DNA of 64,000 bases from Adineta vaga (Eukaryota; Animalia; Rotifera): NCBI GenBank assembly GCA_021613535.1, contig CP075492.1, positions 13,888,001 through 13,952,000 on the forward strand, in the 5' to 3' direction. Below the pieces are notes generated by a model that had not been told where the DNA came from, did no database searches, and was given only the letters and a program-made list of their open reading frames with translations. Shown in pieces: positions 943 through 45,824 of the stretch. The translations under genes were made by a program, and so were the position numbers. The first letter of the stretch is position 1; each line of letters starts with the position of its first letter.

Positions 943-3015
943 TTACGTATGTTCTTCCGAAGTTAAATGTTCAATTAATTTATATAATCTATTTTCATCA
1001 TGAATCTCCATTTCTTCCCAATATTCACATGCACTATCTTCTAAATACGTCAGTGTTTCTGCATCATATTGATCCAATGCAACCGCTTTTTCAAAACAGA
1101 CTTGCCAACGATGATAATGTCTATCATTCATCAAAGTAGTCATTTGTTTATCTACATTATGTTGTTGACTGTCAAGAAGAAATTTGATCACAACATCAGA
1201 ATACGATGCATAACTTGCAATATCCCAATGAATATCAGCAGGCAAAGGATCTTGAATGTAATCACCTGTGCCTAATGAAAGTACACATATATGTTCTCTA
1301 TCATAGCCATATTCGAGAGCTTTTTCATACGCAGCCATTGTTGGATTATTCACTTGTACACCACCATCAGTATAGCATATACCATCGAAATTATGTGGCT
1401 TAAAATATGTTGGTGCAGCTGTTGTTGCCATGAGAACATCTACTATAGATGTTGACTTGTAGTTGTAATTTCTAGTAAATAAATGCGTATAAGTATCACC
1501 AAGTCGAACAGCGGGTATAACAATATCTGTTAAACAATCACGTAATAATGTCTGACGAAAATACTTTTCAAACAATGTTTGTTTACCAGTTGAGGAATAC
1601 TTCGTCGCTAATGATGGTGAAAAGTTGCGATAGCTAAATCTGTGACGATTCTTCTTAAAAAATATATGTTCACCATGTGTTTTATAGATTTCAACTAATT
1701 TTAAAGCATTAATATCAGGCTCCGTTAAACTACCCGCTTTAGGTAAAGATAAACCAGCAGCAATAATAGCACCTGTAGATGTCCCAGCCATCATTTGAAA
1801 CATCGATGAGCACGATCGATTAGTTCGATGTTCTAATTTCGATAACCAAATTGCAGGTATTATTCCACGGATACCACCACCATCGATAGATAATATATTG
1901 TATGATCTGTAATCCTTTTTATAGTTTCCACATTCAAAATGCTGTACTATCGTATCATTTGAGTTGCTTTGACCAATTAGTTTATTAATTATTAGTTGTT
2001 CTTTCTTAACTTCATCATTCTCTGGATCTGCAGCGATTGCAAACAAAATGCTTCTTTGAGCAGCAATATATCTTCTATCTTGTCTTTGATTTGTTTGTAG
2101 ATTAATAGATGATGGCCGATATTTACGTTGTGCAATAGCATATAAATACCAAAATTCAGCAATTTTTTTCTCATTCAATTTTTTTATTTTATTTTTCAAA
2201 TTTGTTAACACTTCATTTGCTTGACTGTATTTACTCAATTTAATCAAACATCGGGAATAGAGTAATGAATTATATAGATCAAGTTCATCAAATGATCTCA
2301 GCTTCATAAGACGTTTATAAACTCGATGTACAGTTTTCCATTTTGATAAAGAAAGTAAATGTTGATGAAATGATACACATTCGGTTTCTTTTACACATTT
2401 TAAAATCAATATACTATATAAGATTATTTTATGTTCAATATCAGCATCTTTTTGTAACGATAATTTCTTTTTAATAAGATTAATATAATTATCATCAGTG
2501 ATGAATATATCAACGATCGTTCGAGTTGATTGGTCATATGTATAGTAAATCGTCTTGAATAAATTATGATTTCGGTTCATAGGTTTGAGAACATGACCAT
2601 GCGGATAATGTTCTTCGATATAACATTGTTGAAAAGTGACTTCATTTTCTCCAATTAAATATGGTAAGTATTGAGTAAACGTTGTGTATTCTTCATCATG
2701 CAACCAGCTGTATATATCCTCACTGATAGTTCTATTGATTTGGTTATTACAAATAATATCTTGAAACTTGCGTCCTGATTCATTTTTATCTCTGGTTAAA
2801 GTATACTGAAACCAATCATTTACATTTTCAAAATCACATTGTACATTAAAATCATATCTGCACACACGTGTACAACTTGTAATTATATTGGTTCTTAACA
2901 ACATTTTTTTAATGAGATAAGGACTCACTGTAATGCTAGCAGTCTCGTTAACTGCCAATCTATTCGCAGATTGTATAACTTCATTTACGTTCGAGTCTTG
3001 ATAACCTTTTGCCAT
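943..3015 (-). CDS. Patatin-like phospholipase with N-terminal helical/TPR-like region (~690 aa, no intron seen)
   Basis: Oxyanion loop SIDGGGIRG, nucleophile GTSTG, AAPTYF and catalytic DGG are all intact. TPR-like helices (LYSRCLIKLSKYSQANEVL; AEFWYLYAIAQRK; AIAADPENDEV) lie upstream. First ATG is 3015; the ORF track began at TTG 3039. Confidence 0.9.
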   Translation of the reverse strand: MAKGYQDSNVNEVIQSANRLAVNETASITVSPYLIKKMLLRTNIITSCTRVCRYDFNVQCDFENVNDWFQYTLTRDKNESGRKFQDIICNNQINRTISEDIYSWLHDEEYTTFTQYLPYLIGENEVTFQQCYIEEHYPHGHVLKPMNRNHNLFKTIYYTYDQSTRTIVDIFITDDNYINLIKKKLSLQKDADIEHKIILYSILILKCVKETECVSFHQHLLSLSKWKTVHRVYKRLMKLRSFDELDLYNSLLYSRCLIKLSKYSQANEVLTNLKNKIKKLNEKKIAEFWYLYAIAQRKYRPSSINLQTNQRQDRRYIAAQRSILFAIAADPENDEVKKEQLIINKLIGQSNSNDTIVQHFECGNYKKDYRSYNILSIDGGGIRGIIPAIWLSKLEHRTNRSCSSMFQMMAGTSTGAIIAAGLSLPKAGSLTEPDINALKLVEIYKTHGEHIFFKKNRHRFSYRNFSPSLATKYSSTGKQTLFEKYFRQTLLRDCLTDIVIPAVRLGDTYTHLFTRNYNYKSTSIVDVLMATTAAPTYFKPHNFDGICYTDGGVQVNNPTMAAYEKALEYGYDREHICVLSLGTGDYIQDPLPADIHWDIASYASYSDVVIKFLLDSQQHNVDKQMTTLMNDRHYHRWQVCFEKAVALDQYDAETLTYLEDSACEYWEEMEIHDENRLYKLIEHLTSEEHT

Positions 3016-3172
3016 GAAAGAGTTCTTAAAAAAAGACAAAAAATCTTACAAAAAAATGCGTCTATACCGTCATAATAGCTAATGCATATTTGTCAGCGTT
3101 CGTTTTTTTTTTTCGTTTCTTATCATCATTAGAGTCTTTTCAGTAATACGTTAGCCGAATCTGTACAAAAAT

Positions 3173-3856
3173 TGTTATATCGTAATCGTGTACTACGAGC
3201 TTGCTGTATATATACGAACAAATTATATCATTTTTTTGCTGATTCGTTTTTACTGCCTAGTGATTTCATTGTTAGCGAAGACGAGCGTCCTCGTTATTGT
3301 TTCGCTCTTCCTCTCTATCGAATCACGTCGGGATACATTCCTCTTTATCCTTCTGCTCATGTAGTGTTCCAGACTTCTCTTTCGTTTTTGTTTTTCGAGA
3401 AAGAATGCTATCTTCGATACCATAATTTCTCCCTTTTGCTTGTTCTTCTTCCCATGTGTGTGCTCGATACAGTGTACGGGGGTAATTTCTGCTCTTTGTG
3501 CTTTTTGATATACATCCCTCCAGAGCCCTGCGGACTGGCTCACAATAATACGATGTACGAAGTAAATACACCAGTACATTATTCCTTCTTTTTCTTTTCT
3601 TCTCTTTAAGCACATACTACCTTCTCTTTTCTTCATATTGTAACGCTACAGAAACTATTCCTCTAGCGTTCTATATACGACACTTGATATACACATATTT
3701 ACACCTCTTGTAACTTCTTCTCTCTATACGAACATAAGACAATAGTCATGGGACCGCTGTCTTTTCTTTCTTCTTCGGCGGACGTATGATAACATACATC
3801 CGTTATTTTCTCGACTATTGTAATGTTGTTATACTATGAATAAAGCTTTGTTACCA
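3173..3856 (+). mobile_element. Possible solo LTR
   Basis: ~680 bp of compositionally distinct CT-rich intergenic sequence starting TGTTAT and ending AATAAAGCTTTGTTACCA (TG...CA, poly(A) signal near the end). The overlapping ORFs look non-coding. No clear target-site duplication. Confidence 0.35.
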
Positions 3857-4037
3857 AGAAAAAAAACTAATACGTTAAGCAGTAAAACTCCATGATTCAA
3901 GTGAGCTGTTCATGCAGATTTTATATTTCTATTTACGGATCATGATACAATTACAGTGTTGATATATAGGTAAAATTGCTTCGTCTGAGATAATCTTGCA
4001 CCATGTGGTGACACCATGTATATGTAGAAAAATTCTT

Positions 4038-5629
4038 TCACAAATGGAATGAAAATTGACAAAAAATCAAACTGAAAACTATGAAAACATTAAAAGAAAT
4101 AATTCTTGTAGCTTGAGAAGTAGTTAAATTTTGTTTTGGTAATAATTCGTAGACATAGAGCAAGCGAGTAACTTCTCGTCGTGCGGTAATTAAAGCACCA
4201 TGTGAATAACCATAGTTGTCTGTACTTGTCGCTTCACCAGCAAATAGCAAACGACTTTGAATTGGTTCGGACAAACGAAAAGGATCTTCATAGCTTTGAT
4301 TGATTGAAATGTATGCATATGAACCATGAGAAAATGGATCAGCATTCCAATTACTCATATAAATTTCCGTCGGTGAAGGGATAACAATATGCGGAAACAT
4401 TGCTTGTAAACTTGTTTGAATTTCTTTGACTATTTCATTTCGATTTTGTTGCCATATTGATAAAGAAATTGAATTACCAGCAATAGTACACAATAAGACT
4501 TGGTACACCATTCCATTTGTTTGCACTAGCCCAAAATCTTAATTCACTTGAATTAATTGATGGTGGTCGAAAGAAATAAAAATTAGTAGTATTCCACCAA
4601 GGTTGATCCCATAATAAATAGATTTTTTCATAATGACCAAATCCTATTCGATCAATCGCATTCAATTTCCATTGCGGAAGTGTTGGATAAAACTCAATTC
4701 CTTTGGATTTTAACACTCCTAGCGGAACTGTTAGTAGAACATAATCTGCTCGATATATTTGTCCATCTTCAGTGAAAACATGAACAATATTATCAGTATA
4801 ATTTATTTTTGTTACGATTTGATTTAAACGAATATCTTTGAGATCTTTTGCTAAACGATCAGTAATTGCCATATAACCTGCATCACAGATAACAGGTTCT
4901 TCACCATAATTTACAGAAGTAAGATCTAAATAACCTTTTGCACCAATAGCTTCTAATTCTGCTCCTTCTCTATCGGCAATTGTAAAATAAGCAAAGTAAT
5001 ACAGTGCATCATGTTGTTCTGAAGAAAGATTTCTTTGTTGAGCAAATAAATTAACGTAATATGCAAATGAAACATTTGATGATGCTGATCTTGTTTGTTC
5101 GCGTACAAAGGCAGAATATTCAACATACCAATGCTGGAGAGTAAGAAGAAAAATACTATCAGTCGATGGACCCAATCCAAGAAAATCATGTTGTCCTGTA
5201 GTACACGTAGGAATATTCACTTCTCGAATGTAGTCCCATATTGGATTCGTTAATTGACCAGATGGAATTGAACCGCGAAGTCCATGAATAAAGCGTGCTC
5301 CCATATCAAGCATCAGACCATTTTTCGATCGAATAGAATGGACTCGACCACCTGTTCGATTTCGTGCTTCTAAAACGATCGTTTGAATTCCATTCTGTTC
5401 TAATAGACGAGTTGCTTCTAAGCCGGCTATACCAGCACCAATGATTAATACCTTCGTTGACATTGTAGTTGATGTCTCTGATGACTGTTTAACCTAATTT
5501 AACACAAATAAACAGAAACAAGGTTAATCAGTGTGATTATGACTGCGTATCTATGTTTACTTCAGAATGAAGCTGTTCAGTATAACCGTAAGCGTATGCA
5601 CAAAAGAAGAATAACTGTAGAATTAACAT
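4038..5629 (-). CDS. Secreted, probably membrane/GPI-anchored flavin-dependent amine oxidase (polyamine oxidase/LAAO-like); one frameshift near 4497
   Basis: Signal exon 5629-5561 (MLILQLFFFCAYAYG...), intron 5560-5494, spliced in frame to KVLIIGAGIAGL..LEARNRTGGRV..DMGARFIHG. C-terminal W..DPFSHGSY and LFAGEAT..HGALITA motifs, then a hydrophobic tail. The two ORFs join with a small shift at ...NGVPS/LLCTIAG. Confidence 0.85.
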
Positions 5630-6321
5630 AGTGTTGTCGAGATTTTAACAAATGATATCTAAATAGACTTAAAGTTCAAAAAGTATACTACGATGTAATA
5701 TTGTGTCGATTGGTATGTATATGTCAGGTAGAATGATTTGATCTTTCTCGACGAAGGAAAGAAAAGAAGAAGAAGAAGAGAAAATTTATGTGTATTTTTA
5801 TCACCAATGATTTATAACGCTTCGTTGCTCTTGTAGAGAAAAAAGCCGACGGATAAGTGTATAAGAAAAGCAGAATATGTATTGTACAAGTTCTATTTGT
5901 TTTTTTTTGTGTTATCGCAGAAGTTTGGAAAGCTTACAACAAGAGCATGTTATTTTTATTTTTATCATGCATAATGAAAAAACAGTAAAAGAGCATAAAT
6001 TATTCTTTGTTGCAGTTTTATGACTCTCCCTCATATAAATCAAGTCGAGGGAGAATAAGAATATTTTACAAACAAATCATTTGATGTATAGGCTATCTGG
6101 CATCCTACTCCTCCTCTTTTTCATCTTTTCTTTGATTTTATTCTAAATGTTTTGGTTGACATTACACTACTTCGCATTTGTTACAGACTTATATTAGATG
6201 ATGTTTAAGTTTTTGCGAAAAAAGGGAAAAAATACGTCAAGAAAAAATTTTCCCCAAAAAAAAGAGGAAAAGAGGAAGAAGGAAGGCAATGTACAGGCAA
6301 AAAATAATGAATCAATTGTTT

Positions 6322-7299
6322 GAGAGAGATGAATGTGGATGCCGGTATCATGTTTGTATGCACACTCTCACCTACATCCGCAATACGGTCGGTAGTAATT
6401 TATATTTGTATATTCCAACTTGTTGGAAAAAAATGTGTTCTTTTGATATATTGATAGACATACTAGTCATACTTTGATGACTCAACTTGAATTCAATTTG
6501 AATTTTTCTACTCGTGAAAAAGTAGTCTTCGATCCTATTCGCTTGACTGTCAGGGTAGGGAAAGATATGCTACGTGCATAATTTGGAGCGTTATAATAAG
6601 TCTTATTTTTCAACACACAGTTAGATCTCTTTATCGCACTATAGTCAAATATAGTATTCATGATAAAGTCTATTCTATTCTGTTATTGGCATTTCATTAT
6701 TTCTTAGATTTTCTCTATGATTTTAATTTTATTGACAACTGTTTTTATTCAATCCATAGAAGCTTACAACGGCGCACAAAGTGGCGATATCAATATTGTT
6801 AAGACATTTCTTAGTCAGAATCCATCTTATAAAGATCGACCTTTAATATATGGATATACTTTGTTGTACGTAGCAACTATGAATAATCATCTTGACATCG
6901 TTAAGTATTTAATTGAAGAAGCTAAATGTTTAATCGATGCTCAAAATCAAGATGATGTGTATACAGGGATCGATACAGCTTTGCATGTGGCATGTGTCAA
7001 AGAGCATGCTGATATAGTTCGTTATCTTCTCGGTCACGGTGCAAATTGTTATTTAGAAAATAAGACAAAAGAAACACCAGGAATGATTGCTAGAAATTCG
7101 TCAGTGCAGTACGATATTTTTCGTGATCATCTCGTGCTTGATTATACTAAACAATGTACGAATAGAATTGAGTTACCAACCATGACAATTACAAATGAAT
7201 TATCATCAAAAAATTATGATTTAAGTTCTGTTACACATAACTGTATTTGGGAATATAAACCATTAAATGAACAACATTGGAAATATTTTGATGAAAAGG
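6322..7299 (+). repeat. Partial, internally deleted duplicate of 11472-12943 (upstream region plus ankyrin-coding part)
   Basis: Direct alignment by eye. The upstream block (GCCGGTATCAT...CAACACACAGTTAGATC) is shared, three internal deletions are present, and the ankyrin-coding block is near-identical up to GATGAAAAGG. Confidence 0.95.
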
Positions 7300-7397
7300 G
7301 TGTGGGTGAAGGTGACGGTATAATAACAAGCGAAACACCCTCACTCTCTCAAGATATAAAAATAATTTCGGAATGTTTGAATGTTGTAATAAATTGA
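6717..7397 (+). CDS. Truncated ankyrin-repeat-only paralog (226 aa) of the 11999 gene; may be a pseudogene
   Basis: Ankyrin motifs GYTLLYVATMNNHLDIVKYLIE and DTALHVACVKEHADIVRYLL plus the start of WWE. The tail (GVGEGDG...) is encoded by the hairpin element. Confidence 0.55.
   Translation: MILILLTTVFIQSIEAYNGAQSGDINIVKTFLSQNPSYKDRPLIYGYTLLYVATMNNHLDIVKYLIEEAKCLIDAQNQDDVYTGIDTALHVACVKEHADIVRYLLGHGANCYLENKTKETPGMIARNSSVQYDIFRDHLVLDYTKQCTNRIELPTMTITNELSSKNYDLSSVTHNCIWEYKPLNEQHWKYFDEKGVGEGDGIITSETPSLSQDIKIISECLNVVIN
7298..7353. repeat. TGTGGG hairpin element at the 3' breakpoint of the duplicate
   Basis: GGGTGTGGGTGAAGGTGACGGTAT...CACCCTCACTCTCTCAAG. Confidence 0.7.
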
Positions 7398-7717
7398 TAT
7401 GTACGATTTGTTTTAATTTTTTTTTTTGTTTTTCTATAGATCTTTCTATTTAACATTTGAAATAAATGAGAAAAAAGTATTAGACTTTCCTTTAATAAAT
7501 CATTTCTCTGATTATTACAGATCAATATAATATGATGATAGAAATATTCAACTTGGTTGGCTTGTGCTCTCATATGTGTTTCTTTGTTCAACTGATCTAT
7601 TCGTGTAAAACCAAGCAACGTTGGTAAATGTACATCACCATTAACTGATTAGATTTTCATTACTTATGCATAAGTGGTTAAATTGTACTAATAGGATTTC
7701 GATAAAGAGTCGCCAAT

Positions 7718-7785
7718 AATTGAGGATTTAGTTGCAGAATTTTCGGTATTTGAAATATGATGCCCTCGCACCCTCGTCCTCAATT
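7718..7785. repeat. Degenerate hairpin element of the same family
   Basis: 9-bp terminal inverted repeat AATTGAGGA / TCCTCAATT, internal CGGTAT, and a C-rich arm CCCTCGCACCCTC. Confidence 0.45.
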
Positions 7786-11998: not shown

Positions 11999-14900
11999 AT
12001 GATGAATTCCACATCATTTTCTGATGAGCTTATAAAAGCTTGTAAAACAATATCAACTCTTATTCATTCAAATATGGATAAGATAAAAGAATTAACGAAG
12101 GATGTTGACAATGAACAAGAATCAATCAATGAATCAACTTTGGCAAAGGTTATTAATTCAGAAGAGTTTTGTTTATTCGCACCATCCGATGAAGTCAACG
12201 CATTATTCATACAGACTGCAAAAGACATAGAAAATATCATCCATCAATTAAAGTATATGCCCAATCACGAGGAGATGACATATCATTATCTCTTAGATTT
12301 CCTTTATGATTTTAATTTTATTGACAATTGTTTTACTCAAACATTCACCATGGATGTTCTTTCGACATTTGAACAAAAAGTAACTGTTTTTATTCAATCT
12401 ATAGAGGCTTACAACGGCGCACAGAGTGGTGATATCAATATTGTTAAAACATTTCTTAGTCAGAATCCATCTTATAAAGATCGACCTTTAATATATGGAT
12501 ATACTTTGTTGTACGTAGCAACTATGAATAATCATCTTGATATCGTTAAGTATTTAATTGAAGAAGCTAAATGTTTAATCGATGCTCAAAATCAAGATGA
12601 TGTGTATACAGGGATCGATACAGCTTTGCATGTGGCATGTGTCAAAGAACATGCTGATATAGTTCGTTATCTTCTCAGTCACGGTGCAAATTGTTATTTA
12701 GAAAATAAGACAAAAGAAACACCAGGAATGATTGCTAGAAATTCGTCAGTGCTGTATGATATTTTTCGTGATCATCTCGAGCTTGATTATACTAAACAAT
12801 GTACGAATAGAATTGAGTTACCAACAATGACAATTACAAATGAATTATCATCAAAAAATTATGATTTAAGTTCTGTTACACATAACTGTATTTGGGAATA
12901 TAAACCATTAAATGAACAACATTGGAAATATTTTGATGAAAAGGAATCTGCTAAATTAAATTCAGCACTACGTCATGAAACCAATATAACTATTAAAATA
13001 GATATTCAAGAACAAACATATCCTATGTCAATGATGACATTTCTTATAGAAGATGTTACTCAGAAATCAAAACGAAATGCGAAATGGATTCGATGTCGTG
13101 GATCAAATCTATATAATTTCGATGTTGTATGTCTTTGGCAAATGATGCTTACCATTCATCCTTCTGTCACTGAGCCCTCACATAAAGAAGCGCAATCAAA
13201 ACCAATCGATATACCAGCATTGTTCAATTCCGATCAATTAAAATATCGTCTGAATTCATGGTATAAAGCAGATGAACTCACTAGTAGATCCTTCGATGAA
13301 GCAATTAATCAACGTCTCCGATACCTCACGATTGATACACATCTATTTGGAAAAATTAAAGTCAATTTGGAATTATTTTCTTTCAATAATGAAAATGAAA
13401 CAATTCAAGGATATATTCGATGGATACCAAAATTTGCTTATATTGATCTGAGGACAAAACATATCACACTGGTCGATAATTTTCAAGTATTTGATCTTCA
13501 GAAGAACCCACCGATACCTTTACTTAGTAAAGTACTTCGAAACTTTGCGTCGATACCCGACGAAAATACTGATTCAAATGAAACGAACAATGAAACTCTC
13601 GCTGATAATGATCCTATGTGTGATGTTCCAGATCGTTACATTGATAATGTTACAGAAGATGGAGATGACGAGATTGACGATAGATCAACATCAATTACAT
13701 TACCTACAATAGATATCGAACAGAACGATGAAGCTGGTGAAGAAACGACTTTCGACGAAGAAAACTCAAATGATTCATCTGTACTAGAAAATCTTCAAAA
13801 CAGTATTCGACAAAACAATGTTCAGTTGGATCGTGAGCGTGCTGTGATAAATCAACTTCAGCAAAGCATTGATCGAGAGCAGGTTCTTTTAAAAGATCTT
13901 GAAAAGAAGAAAAAAGATATTGATCAAAAAGAATCATTAATTCGACAGTTATGTGATAATTTATCAAATCCACTAGTATCAGAAGAACTCCTAGAACTAC
14001 AAAAAGAATATGCCAAGCAAGAGAATATTTTGAATTTCAAAAAAGAAGAAATTAATCAAATTAAACAACGTTATCAGAAACTTGAAGAGAATCTTACAAA
14101 TGCACAGAATAGACTTCGACAATTTGAGAATTGTCGTGAAGCTGAAATTAAAGCTGAAAAAGATTTGATCAAGATGACATACAACATTCCTGGTACTGAA
14201 TATCTTCAATTACAATCAACGATGGTTGAAATTCATTTGAAAACATTATGTTTTCCAGCTAAATCAGCGATACATGTAAACAATATTCGAATTCATTCAG
14301 AAATCCATGAAACAATCGATCATTACCGTATCTGGACTTTAGAAGCTTATCCTATTCATCATAAATTTATGAATGGTATTTGTTTTCGAATTGAACAATT
14401 TATTAAACAAATAGTAAAAGAAAAGAATTCTTATCGATATAAACTAATCTCCAATATTCGTTCATTTATGCAGAGAATTCCGAATGTTAAATTGCAATGT
14501 AGTACAAAGAATTGGAAACTATTTTTAGAAAGCTTTCAAACTTTAATCAATACAACTCGAGACGCATCTTGTCAACAATTTCATGCTTTCATAGGCAAAA
14601 TTGCGAAAACTTTTCTTAATGATATGGTTCAAAATGACCCCAGTTGGCGGAAGAAATTGTCAACAGAAACGAATAAATATCTAGTAGACCATGATTTTAT
14701 GAAATCAATCGAAGACTTAAAACTCAAAGCTTTTCAGGAATTTATTAAAAAAATTAAAGAAAGAGTTACACACAACAATAAATATGTAAAAAATTCTATC
14801 GATATTCTAGGTTATATTTCTTGATTATTAAACAAAGATAACGTTCCTTTTTCTTAATTGTAGACGAACATTTACATCGGTTACAAAATGTACTGGAATA

Positions 14901-17900
14901 TGAAAAATTCTACTCTGGTCACCAACCTCATCATTTTATGGCATTATCGTCTTTAATTCATCGAATTCATCTTATCTTCCAATGTTTTCAATTAAAATTA
15001 CCTTTATTTGAATCATCTGTCGGATTATTACAGAAAATACGTGAAAACATAGTGGTTGCCATTTCTACTGCTACGGGATCAGGTAAATCAACTCTTGTTC
15101 CACCGTTACTTATCGCTGATGGTTTTGATAAAATATTTATTACACAACCACGCCGATTACCATGTACTTTGTTATCCAAACGAGTCAATTCTAGTATGGA
15201 TAGCAATGATTTAAGTGGCTGGGCCGTCGCTGGTGCTCGTTCGAAGAACGTTGCACGTGCGCCTATTCTCTATTTAACTGATGGATTACTTAAAGAATAC
15301 ATTCTATATCGCGAACGCTTTCTGATCAATCAAGCAAAGATAAGCAGATCTGGACTTGTATTTTTTATTGATGAAGTTCACGAACGGTCAATTAATATCG
15401 ATCTTTGTCTTGCATTAATAGCTCGATTTCTTGAAAAGAATCCGTCTATTTATGCAAAAGTGAGAGTAATCATTTCTTCAGCCACCCTCGATCCATCCAT
15501 TGGGCGAATCTTTCGTCCATTCGGATTGAACGAAATGAATTTAAAAATATCCATTCTTCATCCGGTTACTGTCAAACCGGTTTGTACAGAAAATATTATT
15601 GAATTAATTGGTCGATTGAATGAACAGCTCGAATCAGATGATCAAATACTTTGTTTCGTTAAATCAACATTGGAAGTAACAGAACTCATCAGATTATTGA
15701 AGGTAGTGAAGAACTTATCAGCTTTCCCGTTAATTCAATCGCAATCATCGAATGAACAACAGAAACTTATTGAAACAAAACACATATTCTTTTCAACAAC
15801 TGTTGCAGAAACATCTTTGACTTTTCGATCACTGAAGTTTGTGATTGATACTGGTCTTATTCATATGCCTATTTATGATCCATCAAATGATACAACTGAA
15901 CTGCAAGAACTGAATGCAGCTGAATCAACAATTAGACAACGACGCGGACGACTTGGGCGAACACGATCCGGTGAATATTATCCATTGTATGTGTTCAATC
16001 CTTCCGAAAAGAAATTCCCTATTCCACAAATATGTCAAACAGAATTAGTACAAGTCGAGTTTTCTCTTCGTCGATCACCATTAACATGTGGATTAGATCA
16101 TTTGAAAAAATGGTTGCCAAATCCACCTAATAATGAAGCTATTGATGCCGCAAACAGACGTTTACAACAATTTGATATTCTTGATATAAGCAAAAACTTT
16201 ACACCAACTGGTACATCTATTTCAAACTTACCAGATTTTGGTAGTATAGCAATGAGTAAAGCAGTATTGGCAGGTTTAGAAACATATAACTGTGGTCGCG
16301 ATATCATTCGATTAGCTGCTATTCTAAGTGTACTGAATACGTCATCCCCTCTACGACATATTCCTCAGCTTTATACGAAAGCCGAAGGAGATTTTATGAC
16401 ACTACTTAACGTGATGGATGTTATTGAAGCTGAACGACTTACACAACCACCACATCTTTTCGACGTTGATGAAGTTTGTGAAAGAATTGGTTTGAAAAAA
16501 ATAAGTCATCATATCAGACGTGCAGTTATACGGTACAATGCATTCCAAAAATTTTTTTCTCAACCATCACAATATCAAGCTGCATCTCAGTCGTCTACAA
16601 AGGGTAACTGGGCACCAATCGCTCGTGCGCTTCTAGCCGGTTACTCCGATAATGTCTATCTATCATACGCAGAAATTCAAGGTAAGAAACATCGTTTTAT
16701 TCGTTATACCGTTTCCAATAGTTCATCAAAAAAACAAACTGCTGTTCTTGATAAAGCATCTAAACTTTCACGTCCGCTTGGTGCTCAAACTGTTGCATTA
16801 GTGATTGCTCGTGATATCTTTGTGTCGAAAGATGTACGTGATCGATCAGTTATTTCATTTCTTGGAGAGATTCAACCAGAATGGCTTGATCAAGCTCTTG
16901 TACGTGAAATTGAATTAACAAATGAAGAAATAAAAAACTACAATGAAGAAATCAAGATTAGTCCAGGGTTTCACAGTGTTCTTGGTAATGCTAATTCGAA
17001 TTTACAGGGTGAAAAATTAGTCTTATCTGGACAGGCTAATCATGTACTTGCAACAGAATTACATATTAGAAAGACACTTGTCGTTAAGCATACAACATTA
17101 CTTATAGAGAAAAATGAAACTGATACATCATTAAAACAAAATGTCAAAGATCTTATTGAGTCATTACATATTTTTGATCCAATGAAATGGCGTTGGAAAG
17201 CAGAAAAACAGGTGAAAATAATTTTTCTTACAACCGAAGAGCAAGGTGAAATTATCGTGAAAGCTCGTGATAAAGACTTTAAAAAAGTGCGAAAGGAACT
17301 GAATTCCTTTGTTCGATGGCTTCGGTATTGCAAATCGTTACATTTAGATACTGGTATATATCCTCGTCGGTATATTGATCCTCAAACAAAAAAACCTACA
17401 TCAGATATTGAAAGTCGTATCAAACGCGTGACGGACGACACACTGACTTCAGTTAATCACTGGCAAAGTATTCGAGGTGTAGCAGCCACAAGAGAAACCC
17501 GAATGGAAGTGGTAGCATGGATAGCAATTTGTATTTTTCATTGTAAATTAGAAGGTGGTTTTGTTCGTGACTGGATTGTTGCCAATCAATCAGCGCGACC
17601 TTCTCCATCGATTCTAGTTAAGGAATGGGTACAATTTCAAAATTATATTCCAGCTATTGATAAAGCATTAATTCCATCCGATCTCGATTGTCACTTGCCT
17701 TTAGATCATCCATTTGATATTGATCAATTTCTCGATGAGACTCACAAATATAATATACAAACAGAAGTATATCGACAAGATTGGCGGTATGTCTTACTGT
17801 TTGACCGAGATTATCCTACTGGTCCATTCACAATGGATCTTATTGAACCTCATGTTGCACTTACACAAAATCGGATTGATTTCGATGTAAACAATTTGTA

Positions 17901-18739
17901 CGTGATGCGTGGATTCTGCAATGAATTAGGTCAACGAGTTAATCTTCGTGATCCACCATTTTCTATGGATCTGGAACAAATTGTTGAACAGATCAAAAAG
18001 AGACAGTTTCGTTTATTACGTCCTGTTGGCGATGGTATAGTGGAACAGCGTCTAGAAAAGATGCATACACGTGGTTGGCAAAAAGTTGGCAATGATTTGA
18101 ATTATATTCCACCGCCTCATAAAAATCACAAATTTGTGTTAGATCCACTTCCTCCAACCTATGATCTTTATAAAAAAATAGAAAATGAAATGAAGACAAT
18201 TTCAAACATAACTATCTTGTCTATTGAACAAATTCGTAATCCAACTGTCTATAACACTTATCATACAAAGAAAATATTGATTACTGGTCAATGTTCAAAT
18301 GGAGATCCCAATGAACGTTATTTATTTCACGGTACACATACTGAAAAAGTCGAAAGTATCATGGAAATGGGTTTCGATGAGCGTTATTTCTGTTCCGATG
18401 GTTTGTATGGTAAGTTAAAATGTTTCTATATTTGATACCGTACAACACTTTTCTTAATGTTTGTTTTTGTCTTCAGGTCGTGGAGCTTATTTTGCTGATA
18501 AACCGACGAAATCGCATAAATATACATATCCATCTGCAACAAATCCTGTTCATAAAATGTTTTATAGTCTCGTCACACTTGGACAGATATTTGACAAAGC
18601 AATGTCAGATAGATCTTTGCATTCTGCACCGGAACATCATCATTCTGTGCGTGGTTTAGAAAATCTTGATGAGATTGAATATATTGTCTACAGTAGTGCA
18701 CAAGCTATACCATTTCTGCTCATTACTTACCAAGCATAA
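11999..18739 (+). CDS. Multidomain ankyrin-WWE-coiled coil-DEAH RNA helicase-nucleotidyltransferase-PARP protein (2206 aa)
   Basis: Exons 11999-14810, 14864-18409 and 18477-18739 splice in frame (GT-AG, phase 1). Helicase motifs: TATGSGKST, TQPRR, TDGLL, DEVHER, SAT, STTVAETSLT, QRRGRLGR. NTase: LEGGFVRDW..PSDLD..RIDFDVNNL. PARP: LFHGT, YGRGAYFA, EIEYIVY..QAIPFLLITY. Confidence 0.92.
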
Positions 18740-19010: not shown

Positions 19011-22000
19011 TTAGTTCATTCCAATGATGATATCGACAGGATTGTTTGCTGAGTTTATATCATACCAATCGATTGTAACCAAATTGAATGTACTTGACGT
19101 ATGATTTGTTAGAAATTCCTGAAGCATCAAATTCGTTTCCGATCCTAATTTTTTTGGCAACATTGTGGATGTATTTTTGTGAAGATTATCAACTATATTG
19201 TCGAAAATATCTATGATCTGTGGTGTCTGTATCCAACTTATATGGTACATAGATTTCATATTTTTCCTAAGCCCTTGACTTTCGAGTTCTATGAGTTCTG
19301 TAAGACTATTGACACCATTTGAAGCGATCTCCCATCTTCCGGAATCTGCAAATCCTCTAGTATTGATAACTGTATCTTCATAATAGTAATCGTCGGTATG
19401 GTCAGTGTTAAGAACGATGACTTTTGGGGTTGTAATTTGCGAATCATTAGTAGTAATGGAGGAAAGAGTGACATCTTTTAAGTTTTGAAATTCATAAGAC
19501 TTGTGTCCAATAGAATTTTCAGGCATATAAAGGTATGGCTTGAGATGATTTTGAATGATTGCTGTCACTCTCGATGGAAGAGTTTTAGGATCGATACCAA
19601 AGTTAGTATGTGAAATCAAAAGAAAAATTAGCTCACCGGATGTAGAATGAGCGTCGAGAAAATTTCTAATTTGCCGAAGTATATCATTCAATTCAGGACC
19701 ACGAAGTGCATGCTGAATGTAGAAGGATCCATCTACATCATAGTAAACTCGGAAGTCAAAGAATCGTATACCATCATCAAGTTGTTGTCGAATGGTTCGA
19801 TTTTGTGAAATAGATATTCGAAGTGTGGTATCAATGATGTAATCTAATAAGGTACGTCCAACATAGATCTTGTCTTTACTAAACGGTAACTGACCATTCG
19901 CAGGTGCAAAATCAGCACTTAGATTCCATAGAAATTTGATATTTCCATAGGTGATCTGAGAGAGTTTTCGTGTTAACCCATAAGATCCAGAATTGTGAGT
20001 TCCAGGAATTTTTAGCTGCGAAAGTGTCTTTGACTGTATCTTCGGAGTTGACATCCAACGACTGTAGTTAGTTTTTGTTTGTTCGGTTTTTCGAGTTGAA
20101 ACATAAGATGATCTAATCGATATCGATTTCTTGCTAAATACATTTCCGCTCAGAGTTGCGTTAATAAGTTTATTGATAGCCATGTTTAATTTGTCGATGA
20201 GGATGTTGTTGTATTTGACATTGAGTGTACTTGCCAAATGATAGGGTGTATCAATGAGTTTAAACCAGGTAGAGAAAAATGTTTGTATAAGACTAACTAA
20301 ATCTTTGTTGATTTTGAAATTTTCAACCGAGAATGCTAACTTGGTTACTATACAAGAAAATCCGTGAATATCACTGATTTTGACTATAGCTTGTGTCAAC
20401 ATAGACATGCCATCGAGAGTTATATTAAAATTTATATTCATGCTATGGTACACTATGGATCCAGAGATTTTGCCACGAAGATTGAGGATCATATTGATGT
20501 ACCATTGTTCATTGTTTTCATGATATTGAGTCGGTGACAGTGCAGCATACTTGCAGCGGATCGATTGTGGAGTAAGATCGAGTTGTTTAATAATTAATTT
20601 TGTATCCTTATTCAGATCTAAGTGAAGTGGATTGGCAGACACGTATGCGACGATAGCTGGTAGATTAGCAGTGATAAAACTATTGATCAAAGGCGGTAGG
20701 ATATCAGGACCTCCGAAGAAGTAAAATGAGTAATCGATTTCTTGATCGAATGGTTTGATAGGAGCAAGTAATACTCCTGTCTGACCTTCTGATCCGAATA
20801 AATTCGCATTGGTAACATAGTTTCCTTGTCCTACATTTACCTTTATCGTATTGGAGCCGTACGAAATATCAAAAAACGACTGAGACGTTTCAGTACCAGT
20901 ACTAATATACGACACGGGACTGGTTCTACTCGCTTCGATGGTTTGACTAGGGAACGTATGTTTCATATTCATATTTGTCGATGTCGTTAATACCAGCGAT
21001 TGTGAGTAATCATTAGTAATGGTCATAGATGCACGTGAGATTTGCATCATTGCCATTTTCATACTTCTTGTTTGCATATAAGTTTCTATATAGAAAAAAA
21101 GATGAATTTACTGATTTGGATTGGTTTTCTTACCTGGTAAACACGAATGACCATAAAACTCGAATTCGGAATAGTGTACTCCACTCTCAATTCCTCTTTT
21201 CGATACAACCAGGACTCGATAACTTCGATAACGTCGAGTGTTATTCAACATTTGAAGAGAACCTGCCTTGCCTCGACCTGGATCAATATCAAGTCCACTT
21301 GATCCATCATATATCAATGTCCAACTTTTACCTATCGTTAAGGAAGAATTATCAGCATTACTTCCTTCAAGTGTTACTCTGACTGGATCTCGATTTGGCT
21401 GATCAGTTGCAGTGGTAAATCGAAATCCAGTGACAATACAAATACCAACATGAAGTGTCACATAAAAGCCTGTATTTAAGCCACTTCTCAGACTACTGAC
21501 ATTAGCTGAATTTGATCCAAAACTTGTATATTTAGTATAAATATTGCGATCGAAGATAGTGGATTCTATTTCATATGATGGCATTTGTCCTTTTTCATGA
21601 CCTATTGAAGTTGAAAAACTATTTCTTCCTGCTCTGGTACTCCGAATCGATGATATACTGCTATTTAGCGTGTCGATATAATGATCTAGAAGGAAAGTAG
21701 AACACAAGTGTAACTATATACTAGTGGTTTGGAACAGATACATACGAATAGGAATGGCACAATCAAAACCGGTCCAACCTGATTTGCATTTACATATACC
21801 AAATTGAAAGTAAGCACTGTCGACACACGTTCCATGTGCAGTATCTGTGCATTGATTATAACAGTATACTGGATTCGATAAATAGCGATCAACGACAGAT
21901 TTAATCAATATAGCTTTTTTAGAAATATACATATCAGCAGGAAAATATTGATTAGTTAAAAGATCGGCAATGCTAGAGATACCAACTTTCGTAATGACAG

Positions 22001-24078
22001 GATTATTCGGTATCGAATTATACCAATCTTCTAACGAGCGTATTGAAGCTTATAACCTAGTATTCTAGGACTACTTTTTGTGAAGTACATATCGTAAGTA
22101 TTATTTGGCAGTTTTGTTTGATTTACCTTTGTTTCGATCAAGAAGATTTCTTTTGCAACGCTTTTCAACCATGTCTCATCTGATGTATTAAATCCATTTT
22201 GTTCTAATTTAATACGATCGTTTTCTTTAATAATAATCGTTTGTTGTACAATACTACCAAGTTGAAGACTTCTAATATATGTATAACCAAAATAACCAAT
22301 GATAAATTCACGAATGTATCTTTCTACAGTTTCATTAAATTCACAACATGGCATGTTCTCAATTACATATCGAAAATCATTCGATAGTTCAAGTGTTGAT
22401 TCAGTAAGCGAAAGATGAATCGATGACTTGTTGACCGAAGTGAAAAGTATTGTAGAATTGTCTTTGATGATCATATCGACCGCAAAGTGTATTCCTCTCG
22501 CGTAAACATAAGAAAAAGAGATTTCAATAGATTTTGTATCAACGATTTTGCTTGTACTCTCTTTTAAATCACGTAATGTTTTGATAATCTGTGTTTCAAT
22601 ATTAGCATTTTCAGGTATGGATTTGTTGACATAAGTTTTCTTAGATGGAACAGAATACGTAAAGTTAAAGATAGGTAGACCAAAACCTTTTCTTTGATAG
22701 ACTTCTGTATAACATATAGGGGAGTCTTTGGATGGATTGTAGCCAAGACCAAGTTTATTCTTTTTTTCAAGTTTGACTTTTGAAGTATATAGCTGTTGAC
22801 GAATAAGTGACCATGGATCCATTGACAACTTCGCTATAATAATCAAAAGTTGTATAGATCATTTAAATCGAAATCTAATAAATTCCCTTTGTCACTTACG
22901 TTCCGATAGAAGACAAGCACTATTGTCAATATGAAATTTTTGAACACGATTGTTACCAACATCGGCAACGTAAAGATTTCCTTCGAGATCGAATGCCAAC
23001 GATTTTGGTCGATTCAAATGCAACGAAGAATTGCCAGATTCATCTTTAATTTTACTTCTAGTTAAATAATTTAAAAAGAAATTCAACTTTTATTACTTAC
23101 TTGAAATACCAGAAATAACTTCTCCTTGCGACTCTCCTTCTTTCCATCGAAGAATTCTGTGATTGATCGTATCAGCAATATAGAGAAAACCATTTATGTC
23201 GACTATAATATCGTTCGGTCGACAAAGTGTAGCGTTCGATTGATCTACTTTTCCAGTTTGTCCAGCAACAGTAAAGCCACTCGTTGTATTTTCCGTCCAT
23301 TTCTGTATGCGATGATTATTTCACATCAGTTATGTATATCTCATTTAAATTATTAACATACAAAGAATATGGATAAGAAAGTGTTTCATTCGAAGATCCA
23401 TCGATATCTGTTATTCCAGCTATAGTGATTGTTATATTCGTATTACTATTACATTTAATGATCTGAGAACGGTAACGTTCGACAATATAGAAATCTTGTT
23501 TTTCTGAATCAAACCATATACGAGAACATTGATTGCATTGACAATTGATCTTCTCTCCTTCAGTTGCATTTTCTAACCAACGTGTAATATTTCCATCGTC
23601 AGAAGTTGTATAAAATGTTCCATTCTCATCGATGAAAACAATAGAATCGAGTTCATTCCATAACGTCCGACCGATAAGAGAATCGCCTGGAAAAACTTGT
23701 AATCGTGTTTTATCATTGTAACGATCGACAATATACAATGTATCAATTCCGATAATTGCAATGTTTTCCAAATCATTGAGTTTTGTATTTAATTCTTCTC
23801 CTACCATCGTCTCACCGGTACGATTCCATTTCGAACAGGATCTAATTTGAGGCGATATTCTATTGACAAGTTTGAATGAAGTGAATTGTCCTAATTTGAA
23901 TGGCAGAAATATAGATGAAAAATATGAGGGAAATAAACTCACTTGTTTGTTGATTTGATAGAGACTTCGAAGATAATTTATCAACAATTGAATTGATACA
24001 AGTTGATCGTATGACAAAGATATTCATAACGATAGATATAACAAATAAGAGATCGTTTGCTAGTACGATAATCTTCAT
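19011..24078 (-). CDS. Secreted NHL-MACPF-EGF-discoidin(F5/8)-like-PI-PLC fusion (~1600 aa); 2-3 frameshifts, possibly a decaying copy
   Basis: Introns 23942-23891, ~23100/23096-23058, 22899-22834, 21745-21686 and 21133-21086; all but the second verifiably join in frame. NHL: LAFDLEGNLYVADVGNNRVQKF. MACPF: LGYNP..SPICYT, YFGYTYIRSLQLG, WYNSIPNNPV. EGF: CKCKSGWTGFDC. PI-PLC X: IPGTHNSG, QLDDGIRFFDFRV..QH. Frameshifts near 23320 and 22050. Confidence 0.8.
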
Positions 24079-38145: not shown

Positions 38146-39692
38146 ATGAAGATATTTTCATATAGTATGAAATATAGCGCGATGATGTTCGTATGTTTAT
38201 TGAGTGTGTTGAATATAATCTTTATTCATGCACAAGATCCAATCGGTTTGAAAGTACCTGCTTCAAAACGAGGTCTTCTTTTAGGAGCAGCTACTTTAGT
38301 TAGATATTTACGTCCGAATGTTGATCAAGGTCAATATATTTCTAATCTGGTTAAAAACTATCATTTAGTTGTACCTAGAGTTGAAATGAAGCCTTGACAT
38401 ATATGGCGCAGAGGAAATATATACAATTTTACAGATGCTGATTGGCTTTTGGATGCCACACCGAATGAAACAGGTTGGATACAAAAAAATGGCATGCAAT
38501 TGCGTGGCCATACTCTTATTTGGGCGTATGATATGCGGCTGCCAAAATGGTTACTTCAAGAGGAAGCATTGATGACTCCAGTTCAAGCTAAGAATCATTA
38601 AGAGATTACATGCACGCTGTTGTTGGTCGATATCGTGGTAAAATTCTCTGGTGGGATGTAATTAATGAATTAATTTCTGATTATAGTAATACACGACCAT
38701 TTCGTGTCCGAGATTCATTATGGTATCGAAAACTAGGTATGGATTTTGTTAAATATGCTTTTCAATTTGCACATGAAGCTGATCCTGATGCGCAACTTTA
38801 TTATAATGATTATGGTATTGAAGCGGGAGGATGGAAAGCAGATAAAGCTCTTGAAGTAGTTCGTTGGTTAAAATCAGAGGGTGTACCAATTCATGGTTTT
38901 GGTATGCAATGGCATATAAATATATCGAGAAATGTAATTCCCGGAGATATACACTATCAGACAGCATAACGTTTTATTGATGAAAAGGTTCGTTTTATGG
39001 TTACTGAATTAGATATAGCTGTTCCAATGCGTGATGGATTACCTATTAATCCTGATGATATACAAAAACAAGCGACACTCTTTCGTTCAATTTTACAATA
39101 TACTCTTCATTTTTCTTCGCAATCTCCTATATTTGGTACATGGGGTTTTACTGATCGTTATAATTGGTTACCAGCAGCTTCGAATTATACGAAAGGTAAT
39201 GCTTTATTATTAGATAAAAATTATCAACCAAAACCATCATATTGGCAAGTACAAGAAGAATTGGCTCGTGTACTTCTTGATGGTATTTATCGTATTACAC
39301 CTAAAACACAAGTTGATAAATGTCTTGGTACTTCGATGAATAGCACATCTAGAAGTATAAAACTTTTTACTGGAAATTGTAATAATTTAAATCAAAAATG
39401 GAATGTTACATGGTTAGTTGATGGAACTTATCGATTAACAACACGTAATGAAATTGATCGTGCTCTTAGTGTTAATAATGTAACTTCACCCAATGCTCCT
39501 GTTCAAACAACTAAATGGATTGGTGCTACAAATCAAGGATGGGTTCTTACAAATTTTGGAAATAATTTATTTAGTATTGTACCACGAACAGCTTGGCAAC
39601 GTCCATTATCAATGTATCAAACATCAAACATAGGTATCGTCAATGATACAAACAATAATCTACAAAGTTGGCTCTTTACTCTAACACTTTAA
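38146..39692 (+). pseudogene. GH10 endo-1,4-beta-xylanase with C-terminal ricin-B/CBM13; intronless, three lesions
   Basis: Signal peptide, EMKP, LRGHTLIW, WDVINE (acid/base), YYNDY, GMQWH, VTELD (nucleophile), WGFTD and QxW repeats. Lesions: TGA 38395-38397, 1-nt deletion near 38597, TAA 38967-38969. Confidence 0.88.
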
Positions 39693-39752: not shown

Positions 39753-42700
39753 TTATAGAGTTGTAATAATAACTGAATTTAATTGAGGAACATAAGTGGC
39801 ATTGATGTCATCTTGTATATGATTTCTAACAATTCTTTGACAAATAATACATTTTGTATTGCCAACAGATGGTCTGGAATGTGATTCCCAACATTGAGCA
39901 CATGATACTTTATGTCCACAAGGTGTGAAACGTACAGCACGAAGTCGATCTTCACACATCATACATAGTTTCGTTTCTGTTTTTTGTTCAATAGTTTTTA
40001 AATCTGACACTAATTGAATTGCATCTGGTCGATCGTTAGGATTGTAACTGAGACATCGACGAATGAGATCTTCATAAGGTTTTGTGTATTCATCTAATTT
40101 TGGATTTGAACGAAATAAATCATCTAGTTGCTTTTCTTTAACAACATCAAGTCGTTCATAATTACTTTTAGGTAACATTTCGTATAGAAAATGTCCAAAT
40201 GAATAAATATCAGCTGCAGTACCATCATAAGTAGCGAAACTAGTATCTTGAATAGACTGTCTAGCAATTATTTCAGGTGGTATCGGTGCTGTACCCAAGA
40301 TAGTATTACCAGTGAATCCAAATTTGGCTGTACCAAAATCAATGAGATAACATTGTTCATTCTCATCGAGCATTACATTACTTGCCTTTAGATCTCGATG
40401 AACCATTTCACGACGATGAAGTTCAGCAAGTGTTGTAGCAACAGTAAGCGCAAAATTAACAACACGAGTAAACTCGATATGAGCCATATGTCGAATTAGG
40501 TATTGTTGCAACGACATTGGATATTTTGGCATTATTAACCATAGTTCTCGTCGATTATCATCTAAATTATTTTCATAGGTATAAAGAAGTGGAACAATAT
40601 GATCGATATATAGAAGAGTTGCTGCACGATGTAAATGTGCTTCTAATGCAACCATTTTATCATCATTAACTAATGGACGAAGTAACTTTTTCACTGCTAA
40701 ATTATTGTCGGTATGCCATTGTGCTTCATAAACCCCATAGAGACTACTTCGCCCTAATTCATCACCAAGAACAGGACGAATACCATTTCGTTTATGAAGT
40801 TCTATAGCCGCTAATAACTGACATTCAATTTTGGCAAATGTACCAGAAAAATTCGAAATCATATTGTAACGTGTGTGTTGATCGGCTAGATGCTTTTGAA
40901 TATAGATATAATTTTTTTTTGTATTTTTATTGAATAATTTTCTTTGTTCTTCTACCCATGAATATAAATTATGGTTAAATGTATCTTTTTGTTTTTTGAT
41001 TTTTTCCGATAACTCAGTTAAATAGTGATCTGCAAGTTTATGTCGTCCAGTTTCATTCGATAAAGTAGCATAAGTATCCATTGCGTCTAACAATTTATAC
41101 GCATCATCATCATCACCTTTCTTAATTTGTGTATCAATAAATCGATTATAGATATCTTTTCGATAACTACTTAAACGTATCGGTAGACTACGCCAAAAAC
41201 GCGTACATCTCAAGGGTAAAGTGATAAGATTATCAAAAAATACATTGAATAGATTCGTCTTTTGTAATACATCAATAGATAATTCATTTAGAACATGTCG
41301 TTGAGCAACTGTTAGTAATTCATTTTTACGTTGACCACGTTGTACTTGAAAATGATTAGCAATTAAAGTTGTTACTTGATCTCGTTTTGCATTAATGACA
41401 TTATTTGCTGCTACTTTGATGATCTGCTCTCGAACAGCTAATTGAATGTAATCTTGAATACGTTTTGATTTGTCTTGTAATAGTGCATCAATACGGTCAC
41501 CTGTACGCGTAATTAGAGTAGCTTGATTTACAATTTGTTCTTTAAGTTCTTTAAATAATCTATCAATATTGACCATTAAATCATCAATTAATGTTGGTAA
41601 TAACTGTTTATATTCATTAAAAAAGCGACGACCCCATTCGAATGATTCATTACGCAGAGTATAATTGGGTCGATGTTCGTACTGATGATGATGTCATGAA
41701 ATCAAAATAATCATCGATCGTTGCAAGTATATCACGTGCTAGTACAAGTGTTGGCATTGAATAGGCTTCAGCAGCAAATTTCACAATACGTCGAAAACTA
41801 CTTGTATTAATCATATTGGTATATGTTTCCCATGGATCAAAATCTCTTGGTATTGTACAGATATCGAAACATGTCGATTCATCGACAGAACTCGGTAAAC
41901 GACCGAGAACTTCACTTGCCATTTCATGTCGTCGAAGAAGAAGTTCATAACATTTTTGTCGTTTTTCACGTAGCGTTTCATTGAAAAGTTCGATAGGAAC
42001 ATTCTCAGGATCATCATCAAGATAATAATCATTGGCAATTGATATACAATCAGCTTTTGTATTTAAAAAAAAGACAGAAATACGTTCCATAGAACCAAGT
42101 GCATGTTTCATTGCTAGAAAACAACTTTTATCCGTATCACTAATCGTCGCATTATCGTAGAGAAAAACTAATGTTGGTTTAATACGTTTTACTAATTGAT
42201 GTAAATTATCCGTTAGAATTTGTTCACGATTACTTGAAAGAAAGCCAGGTGTATCATAAACATCAATACCTAAAGCGAGAGTATGTGAAGGAAGTGAAAT
42301 TTCAACAAAACATTTCGTCCATTGAGTAAACTCAAGTGATTCTTCATTAATATTATCTGGTCGTTTAACATGCGATCTTATCGCATTGGTAACACCATTC
42401 CAATCCCAATCATCTTGGCTATTGAAAAATGATGATAGATCATTGTCAGTAAGGAGATGAATCTTTTCATTCGTATCATAAACACGGCAACGTGCTTGAC
42501 TACTTTCTGCATATGTCAATTGAACGATACGTGCTGTTACAGATCCTATATCCGATGGTAATATATTTCCTATACTAAGAAAACGTTGAATAAATGATGT
42601 CTTTCCACATGAATTCGGTCCAAATACAACCAAAGATGGTCGATTGGTATTAGCATGTTCATCGATGATAGTGTCTGCTACCTGTTGAAAACGATTGTTT

Positions 42701-42986
42701 ATATTTTCATCACCATCATCATCATCATCAAGATGATCACTAGTATTTGTTGTTAACAATGTAGATTTCGAATTATTTTTAATCTAAGAAAATAAGAACA
42801 GGTTTATGTCATTCGTTTTCTAATTCTTGACAAGATAGTTACACTAGATCGATCTATATCTCGAAGATTTTCTAGGAATTTCAGACGTAATTGTTTAAAT
42901 TCTTTTGCATTTCGACAAACATCTGCTTTTAATTGATACGCACAAGAAAGTGATGTTTTAATATCGGGATCATCATGGAAATTCAT
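39753..42986 (-). CDS. Dynamin-like GTPase-protein kinase-RING fusion (DSTYK-related); one frameshift near 41662
   Basis: Intron 42842-42784 is in frame. G1 GPNSCGKT, G2 VTAR, G3 DTPG, G4 NTKAD. Kinase AVK, HRDLKASN, DFG, GT, DIYSFG. RING CMMC..PCGH..CAQC..CIIC. Coding continues across the frameshift (TLRNESFEWGRRFF). Confidence 0.85.
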
Positions 42987-43024
42987 CTAAAAGAAAAAAT
43001 GAAGACACACATTTCTATTATCAA

Positions 43025-45703: not shown

Positions 45704-45824
45704 ATTTCAATCTACAATATAGTGTTAGCTTGCAAAACGTGTTTTTTTCTCTACTCTTATACAAGTAGCGGTTAACGTTTATCTTTGACAATGATTGTGA
45801 CGAACAAAAAAAATGAAAGGTAGT

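Follow-up and report, generated by a model that had tools for sequence, protein, structure and literature searches.

A single spliced gene of a bdelloid rotifer links a MACPF domain to a predicted aegerolysin-fold, TULIP and bacterial-type phospholipase C cassette

The reverse strand of a 64,000-nucleotide (nt) stretch of the Adineta vaga genome (GCA_021613535.1, contig CP075492.1, positions 13,888,001 to 13,952,000; hereafter the window) carries, between positions 24078 and 19011, sequences resembling a MACPF domain and a phospholipase C that is specific for phosphatidylinositol (PI-PLC). Do they belong to one gene, and what could a protein that combines them do? Six exons and five GT-AG introns of 48-66 nt form one gene here, and the fusion of MACPF to PI-PLC is real, its parts being joined by splicing across the last two introns. 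The gene is likely intact, with a predicted product of ~1,590 residues, and lies in AT-rich eukaryotic DNA with short introns. We put the probability at roughly 50% that this product is a secreted effector attacking the membranes of microbes that are eaten or fought.

An earlier note, made from the sequence alone, had joined separate open reading frames (ORFs) through short introns into one gene. Its coordinates and junctions hold, and the window pieces are collinear with the 1601-residue A. ricciae protein P0001 (55-66% identity, tblastn); the nearest database protein is P0002, an A. vaga 'hypothetical protein' (91-98% identity). Two sequencing runs, X16 and X19, are RNA-like, X16 being taken as RNA by guess and not by record. 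Contigs of X16 skip exactly introns 1, 4 and 5, all GT-AG, while no spliced joint is present in the four DNA runs, which come from four studies. Since these joints are present in X16 and in none of the DNA runs, we regard them as splices. The last junction, which had been predicted to be in frame, is thus spliced exactly at 21133-21086; the PLC exon is joined to the upstream exon, contrary to the suggestion that the PLC might persist alone. Since the end of MACPF and the EGF domain both lie in exon 4, the chain of exons 4, 5 and 6 is supported junction by junction, the chain being spanned by no single molecule and the whole gene by no single record. Introns 2 and 3 had no spliced cover in the RNA-like runs. 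Contigs of X20 read through introns 1, 3 and 5 and were taken as DNA or unspliced. In the metagenome contig L002, which is bdelloid by gene content, intron 5 is missing, and exon 5 and the cassette run on as 838 stop-free codons in one frame.

Frame breaks do interrupt the NHL/MACPF half of the window copy, as noted before, but their number is two (near 23320 and near 22048) and not two to three. At each site, a one-base indel separates the window from the contigs of all four DNA runs at full depth, at the first site in both haplotypes, and the break near 23320 is also absent from an X16 contig. Since short-read contigs of four studies lack both breaks, these are likely assembly errors and not the decay that had been supposed; one DNA run possibly comes from the window's own sample, so that the independent studies number three to four. 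The automatic model P0002 is gapped and bypasses both breaks via apparent false introns. Pairwise ratios of nonsynonymous to synonymous substitution rates (dN/dS) between the window and contigs L002 and L001 were 0.15-0.31 for every domain at dS 0.6-1.5 (MACPF, 0.22-0.23). The gene is under purifying selection and kept across Adineta and Rotaria, and the window copy is likely not a pseudogene. The idea of a chimera that is dispensable or decaying and retains little function, which could appeal to A. steineri and Rotaria models that are truncated or split, to the domain losses in L001 and L002, to the active-site Asn described below and to a low RNA depth (depth not being a measure of expression), is largely refuted by the unbroken DNA runs, the dN/dS values, the full-length models in two other species and the spliced transcript, and we hold it to be very improbable.

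The linkage extends to related species. When 56 proteins were mapped by domain, 11 had MACPF and PLC within a single model, these being from A. vaga, A. ricciae, A. steineri and Rotaria sp. Silwood2, and in four the full-length set of seven domains is present (A. ricciae P0001 and P0172; A. steineri P0175 and P0178). With such homologues known and the 21133-21086 intron spliced, neither of the two refutations named in the earlier note holds. The PLC ranks with the most strongly conserved domains, with 72-76% identity to P0001, versus 55-66% for MACPF.

The C-terminal cassette of exon 6 was modelled with AlphaFold2 on 64 sequences. The model has a predicted local distance difference test score (pLDDT) of 92.5 and a predicted template modelling score (pTM) of 0.91, which suggests that its three domains pack rigidly as one body. 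The domain order proposed earlier stands for NHL, MACPF, EGF and PI-PLC, but the supposed linker before the PLC is modelled as two folded domains, a beta-sandwich and a TULIP barrel. The sandwich (residues 13-125 of the 688-residue ORF) matches Cry34Ab1 with Z 10.5 and a root-mean-square deviation (rmsd) of 2.8 over 110 residues, chain 9do6_A of an OlyA/PlyB pore entry (Z 8.6), RahU (8.2) and actinoporins (8.0-8.4), the first three over 110-113 residues and the actinoporins tying with them. Neither the sandwich alone nor three stand-alone N-terminal halves gave a Pfam match at E-values up to 10. By its predicted structure, the sandwich is a fold-level relative of aegerolysins and not a member of their sequence family, and it may bind lipids. 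Residues 127-310 match at least seven families, namely Der p 7, Takeout, LBP, JHBP, BPI, SPLUNC1 and SMP (Foldseek E 3.5e-5 to 4e-4; rmsd high, 7-13), which we take to belong together as TULIP proteins. The fungal homologue P0018 gave weak leads to the same TULIP superfamily, and the barrel has no Pfam match.

Residues 336-688 fold in the model as a PI-PLC barrel closest to the enzymes of Listeria (Z 23.8) and Bacillus (Z 22.8), with an rmsd of ~3 over 258 residues, whereas Ca-dependent and eukaryotic PLCs score 13-14.5. The predicted domain therefore resembles the metal-independent enzymes of bacteria more closely than it does eukaryotic PLC, and its description as bacterial-type was sound. 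Pfam PI-PLC-X scores 18.7 bits on the window, below the cut-off of 23.1, and P0011, P0168 and P0202 score above it. The active-site residues in the 688-residue ORF are His361, Asn362, Asp441, Arg443, His456 and Asp670. Equivalents of bacterial His32, Arg69, His82 and Asp274 are kept as His361, Arg443 and His456, by alignment with the Bacillus enzyme, and as Asp670, by family conservation; both catalytic His residues read earlier from the sequence are thus in place. PMC9572076, from which we took the list of bacterial active-site residues, describes Bacillus PI-PLCs as releasing glycosylphosphatidylinositol (GPI)-anchored proteins. The rotifer domain would accordingly be a candidate for cleaving phosphatidylinositol (PI) or GPI anchors.

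The N-terminal half is of a different kind. In the window pieces the Pfam match to MACPF is weak (E 0.06), but eight of 11 homologues score above the cut-off (E 1e-8 to 1e-15), and profile evidence firmly assigns the domain to the MACPF/CDC superfamily. The region of the signature FGxxYIxxxxLGG aligns with complement C8 beta (E 0.09), the second Gly being Ser in the window. For the MACPF-EGF half, the nearest Atlas clusters are complement C8 beta and C9 (scores 0.83-0.88, a lead only), and a BRINP cluster is also among the matches (0.79). The two hairpin regions measure 50 and 53-57 residues and are accompanied by a Gly-Gly hinge in most homologues; in the window they measure 42 and 53. Exon 1 starts with a hydrophobic, signal-peptide-like segment, and the encoded protein is probably secreted.

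In the proposed effector, the sandwich would dock on lipids of the target membrane, the TULIP barrel would extract lipids or present them to the PLC, and the PLC would act by cleaving PI or GPI anchors, while MACPF may oligomerise and, in some lineages, perforate. We infer that the target membranes are microbial. The lipid-cutting core looks the better supported half, and perforation looks accessory. Several observations count against this reading. The sandwich also matches the non-lytic xylanase inhibitor TLXI (Z 8.3); since an unrelated inhibitor scores alike, the structural matches speak for fold and not for function. A loop Trp found in most fungal sandwich domains is missing from the bdelloid copies. 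The position of the catalytic Asp33 is Asn362 in the window and Asn in all 12 bdelloid-type copies, versus Asp in all 17 other cassette members checked, so that PLC activity may be lower or altered; a literature search on an Asp33-to-Asn change found none. Many bdelloid models end before the PLC, in or after exon 5 in Rotaria sp. Silwood1 and inside the cassette in some A. steineri; these models are automatic, and their truncations could be real alleles or errors. The remaining points concern MACPF. In the window it is indeed short, as suspected earlier, with gaps of 10 and 8 residues relative to most homologues and a Gly-Ser hinge, and P0004, P0011 and P0174 are also gapped. In L002 (contig 3323-7729), MACPF is ~90 residues shorter; a stretch of ~60 residues, the second hairpin region among them, is gone. 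The bdelloid-type L001 (1-3174) has neither MACPF nor EGF, with 156 nt between its NHL and exon-5 matches and the cassette following. Beta-amphipathicity exceeded that of shuffled sequences in none of 24 hairpin segments (p 0.26-0.83; no positive control), in a test that scored 12 of 13 rows, L002 without the motif being the row not scored. Judged from these sequences, MACPF is labile among bdelloids, and pore formation by it is unproven.

The same losses, gaps and hinge change, together with the absent amphipathic signal, the stronger conservation of the PLC and the BRINP match, would fit a secreted lipid-cutting enzyme that serves digestion or the shedding of GPI-anchored surface proteins and in which MACPF is a non-lytic scaffold that forms no pore. 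Non-lytic MACPF proteins exist, as in BRINP, astrotactin and Torso-like. Most homologues, however, keep full-length hairpin regions and the Gly-Gly hinge, the top Atlas matches are C8 beta and C9, and lytic MACPFs are known to work with partners of the aegerolysin fold; we regard the scaffold explanation, the chief alternative, as possible but doubtful. A stronger form of the effector hypothesis, which we hold only tentatively, is a membrane-attack machine in one chain, in which a complement-type MACPF, aimed by the acquired aegerolysin fold, would form a pore while a TULIP-fed PLC digests the same membrane. If true, a pore-former would here carry its own lipid-degrading enzyme, and one gene would have reinvented both the fungal aegerolysin/MACPF pair and the pore-plus-PLC strategy of Listeria. 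Tethered at the C-terminus, the PLC would remain outside such a pore unless cut off, so that the 'self-delivery' suggested earlier needs a further step.

Cutting of this kind is what a polyprotein would provide. Cleavage after secretion in flexible basic linkers would turn the MACPF half into one partner and the cassette or PLC into another, and the pore might admit freed PLC to the inner leaflet. Stretches of low confidence that contain basic residues, at 1-9 and ~310-330, border the cassette and the PLC, and the cassette stands alone in microbes, being two ORFs in contigs L008 and L009. The pTM of 0.91 suggests instead that the cassette domains pack as a single body, and we consider the polyprotein improbable. 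For the secreted effector, the role of the pore domain can be tested directly on variants that nature provides, some with MACPF, some without it and some with a shortened one.

The origin of the two halves seems to differ. As a stand-alone protein of ~630-750 residues, the cassette occurs in fungi and soil bacteria, matching exon 6 over its full length at 27-43% identity. Six of the 25 stand-alone matches looked up carry an organism name, all fungi, and the proteins are annotated merely as PLC-like or hypothetical. One Actinomycetota genome contains the cassette as a single ORF (one locus, from a prokaryote scan with one protein that reached close relatives only). In the fungal-looking contig L004, the cassette adjoins a HET gene, whereas L008 (2-1960) and L009 (3375-5501) have TonB and SusD neighbours and divide the cassette into two adjacent ORFs, one for sandwich and TULIP and one for PLC. 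Podospora and Orbilia have stand-alone sandwich-plus-TULIP proteins of 320-340 residues. No MACPF was found among the scanned neighbours of stand-alone cassette genes. Two other neighbours, L004 5368-6609 and L010 3774-4229, have no Pfam match and resemble each other by eye; the L010 ORF contains an HFLTD-type motif of the sort seen in zinc phospholipase C or P1 nuclease proteins.

A quick tree of 32 rows, from which 10 rows that were near-identical or gapped had been left out, places the bdelloid copies in one clade (support 100) that groups with an actinobacterial clade and two unnamed proteins (support 88). With this support the donor is not fixed. No named non-bdelloid animal appeared among the cassette matches, most of which are unnamed. 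From these sequence relationships, the cassette was likely gained horizontally from microbes, and with an animal-type MACPF-EGF half the gene likely combines parts of animal and of microbial origin. A foreign microbial cassette joined to an animal immune-type gene would bear on how bdelloids use foreign genes, and the search brings to light an undescribed aegerolysin-fold/TULIP/PI-PLC family of fungi and bacteria.

Pore-formers and PLC are encoded by separate genes in Listeria, where LLO and PlcA had served as the comparison. Since the aegerolysin-fold and TULIP domains had been missed, fungal aegerolysin/MACPF pairs are the closer one, the aegerolysin being the part that targets the membrane in these pores. 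Two-part pores of ostreolysin A or pleurotolysin A with pleurotolysin B likewise combine an aegerolysin-fold sandwich with a MACPF, and such pairs are lytic according to PMC10975569. The rotifer gene differs in having both in one chain, in an animal-type MACPF with EGF, in the TULIP barrel and enzyme that follow the sandwich, and in a sandwich with 4-8% identity and no Pfam aegerolysin match. With the bacterial PI-PLCs of Listeria (PlcA), Bacillus and Staphylococcus it has in common the barrel (Z 22-24) and the four conserved catalytic residues, but it departs from them in the Asn at Asp33, a ~45-residue insert after the first His, an identity of 17-20% and two extra predicted lipid-handling folds in front. 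Complement C8/C9 and perforin share the order MACPF then EGF; unlike them, the rotifer gene puts an NHL propeller before this pair and an enzyme cassette after it, and its hairpin regions differ or disappear from species to species. The lectin-pore fusions Pomacea PV2 and plant jacalin-MACPF also pair MACPF with a candidate binding module, and PV2 is not known to have an enzyme domain. Stand-alone fungal and soil-bacterial cassettes differ from the rotifer cassette, which sits behind a MACPF half.

In the literature searched, the combination of MACPF, aegerolysin fold and PI-PLC in one chain was not found, and the architecture is apparently undescribed; full-text searches, whose coverage leaves out most subscription journals, returned no description of the protein or of its architecture. 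The parts seen of related sources list MACPF and PI-PLC as separate entries among jacalin partner domains (PMC5536079), report apicomplexan aegerolysin-HEPN fusions (PMC3710099) and treat fungal bacterial-type PI-PLCs with no mention, in those parts, of aegerolysin, MACPF or rotifers (bioRxiv 10.64898/2026.07.28.741319). PMC11258130 (Nowell 2024) does not discuss MACPF, perforin or phospholipase in the portions available, and a search of 12 of its 16 supplements gave no domain match.

Table 1 Features of the MACPF/PI-PLC gene, in window positions
Feature	Position	Strand	Basis or remark
Exon 1: ATG and hydrophobic, signal-peptide-like N-terminus	23943..24078	-	Hydropathy peak 2.59 from residue 3; P0001 and P0172 begin alike
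Intron 1, 52 nt, GT-AG	23891..23942	-	Skipped by X16 contig
Exon 2: bulk of NHL beta-propeller	23101..23890	-	Pfam NHL; propeller fold of homologue P0007; frame break near 23320, window only
Intron 2, 57 nt, GT-AG	23044..23100	-	Acceptor picked by homologue match; without RNA cover
Exon 3: final NHL repeat	22900..23043	-	Pfam NHL, E 3.5e-7
Intron 3, 66 nt, GT-AG	22834..22899	-	Identical acceptor in NCBI model P0002; without spliced RNA
Exon 4: MACPF and EGF	22833-21746	-	Carries both domains
MACPF domain, animal type	21864..22753	-	Two in-frame gaps (10 and 8 residues) relative to most homologues; Gly-Ser at Gly-Gly hinge; frame break near 22048, window only
EGF-like domain	21753..21863	-	Pfam EGF_Teneurin, E 2.7e-4, under cut-off
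Intron 4, 60 nt, GT-AG	21686..21745	-	Skipped by X16 contig; loose end in X19 fits exon 5
Exon 5: conserved 183-residue domain	21134..21685	-	63-78% identity between bdelloid copies
Intron 5, 48 nt, GT-AG, fusion junction	21086..21133	-	Skipped by X16 contig, short side 94 nt; missing from contig L002
Exon 6: 688-residue ORF, predicted three-domain cassette	21085-19011	-	Structure model
Predicted aegerolysin/actinoporin-fold beta-sandwich	20703..21041	-	Structure model and structural matches
Predicted TULIP (BPI/LBP/Takeout-like) barrel	20148..20699	-	Foldseek matches of model
Predicted bacterial-type PI-PLC barrel, up to stop codon	19011..20072	-	Structural matches and active-site residues

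On the window pieces, Pfam recognises NHL, EGF and PI-PLC-X, the last two under their cut-offs. The NHL propeller is identified by these repeats and by a propeller fold in the model of homologue P0007. That model, of the NHL-MACPF-EGF-exon 5 half, has a mean pLDDT of 43.9 with 23 close sequences; only the propeller is folded, and the exon-5 part has pLDDT <30. The exon-5 domain has no match to Pfam or the PDB. The earlier discoidin-like label, which its motifs would extend to discoidin/CBM32-like, is unconfirmed by any profile or structure search. Tachylectin and PMM, two weak Pfam matches in exon 2, were discarded. Elsewhere in the window, at 46655-57775 (+), polycystin-like parts, as judged by eye, come after several NHL propellers; these propellers have 27-37% identity to the NHL part of P0001.

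Two long ORFs at 11999-18435 (+) converge on the gene and end ~580 nt from its stop codon; they show ankyrin and coiled-coil features by eye, and DEAD helicase and PARP by Pfam. An ankyrin-like segment of ~190 residues occurs twice in near-identical form, at 6708-7397 (+) and 11999-14824 (+). At 39753-45706 (+), tandem ORFs look by eye like a dynamin-type GTPase and a protein kinase, with one RING-like end. Candidates for foreign origin, again by eye, are a patatin-like phospholipase ORF at 943-3045 (-) and a xylanase-plus-ricin-like ORF at 38970-39692 (+).

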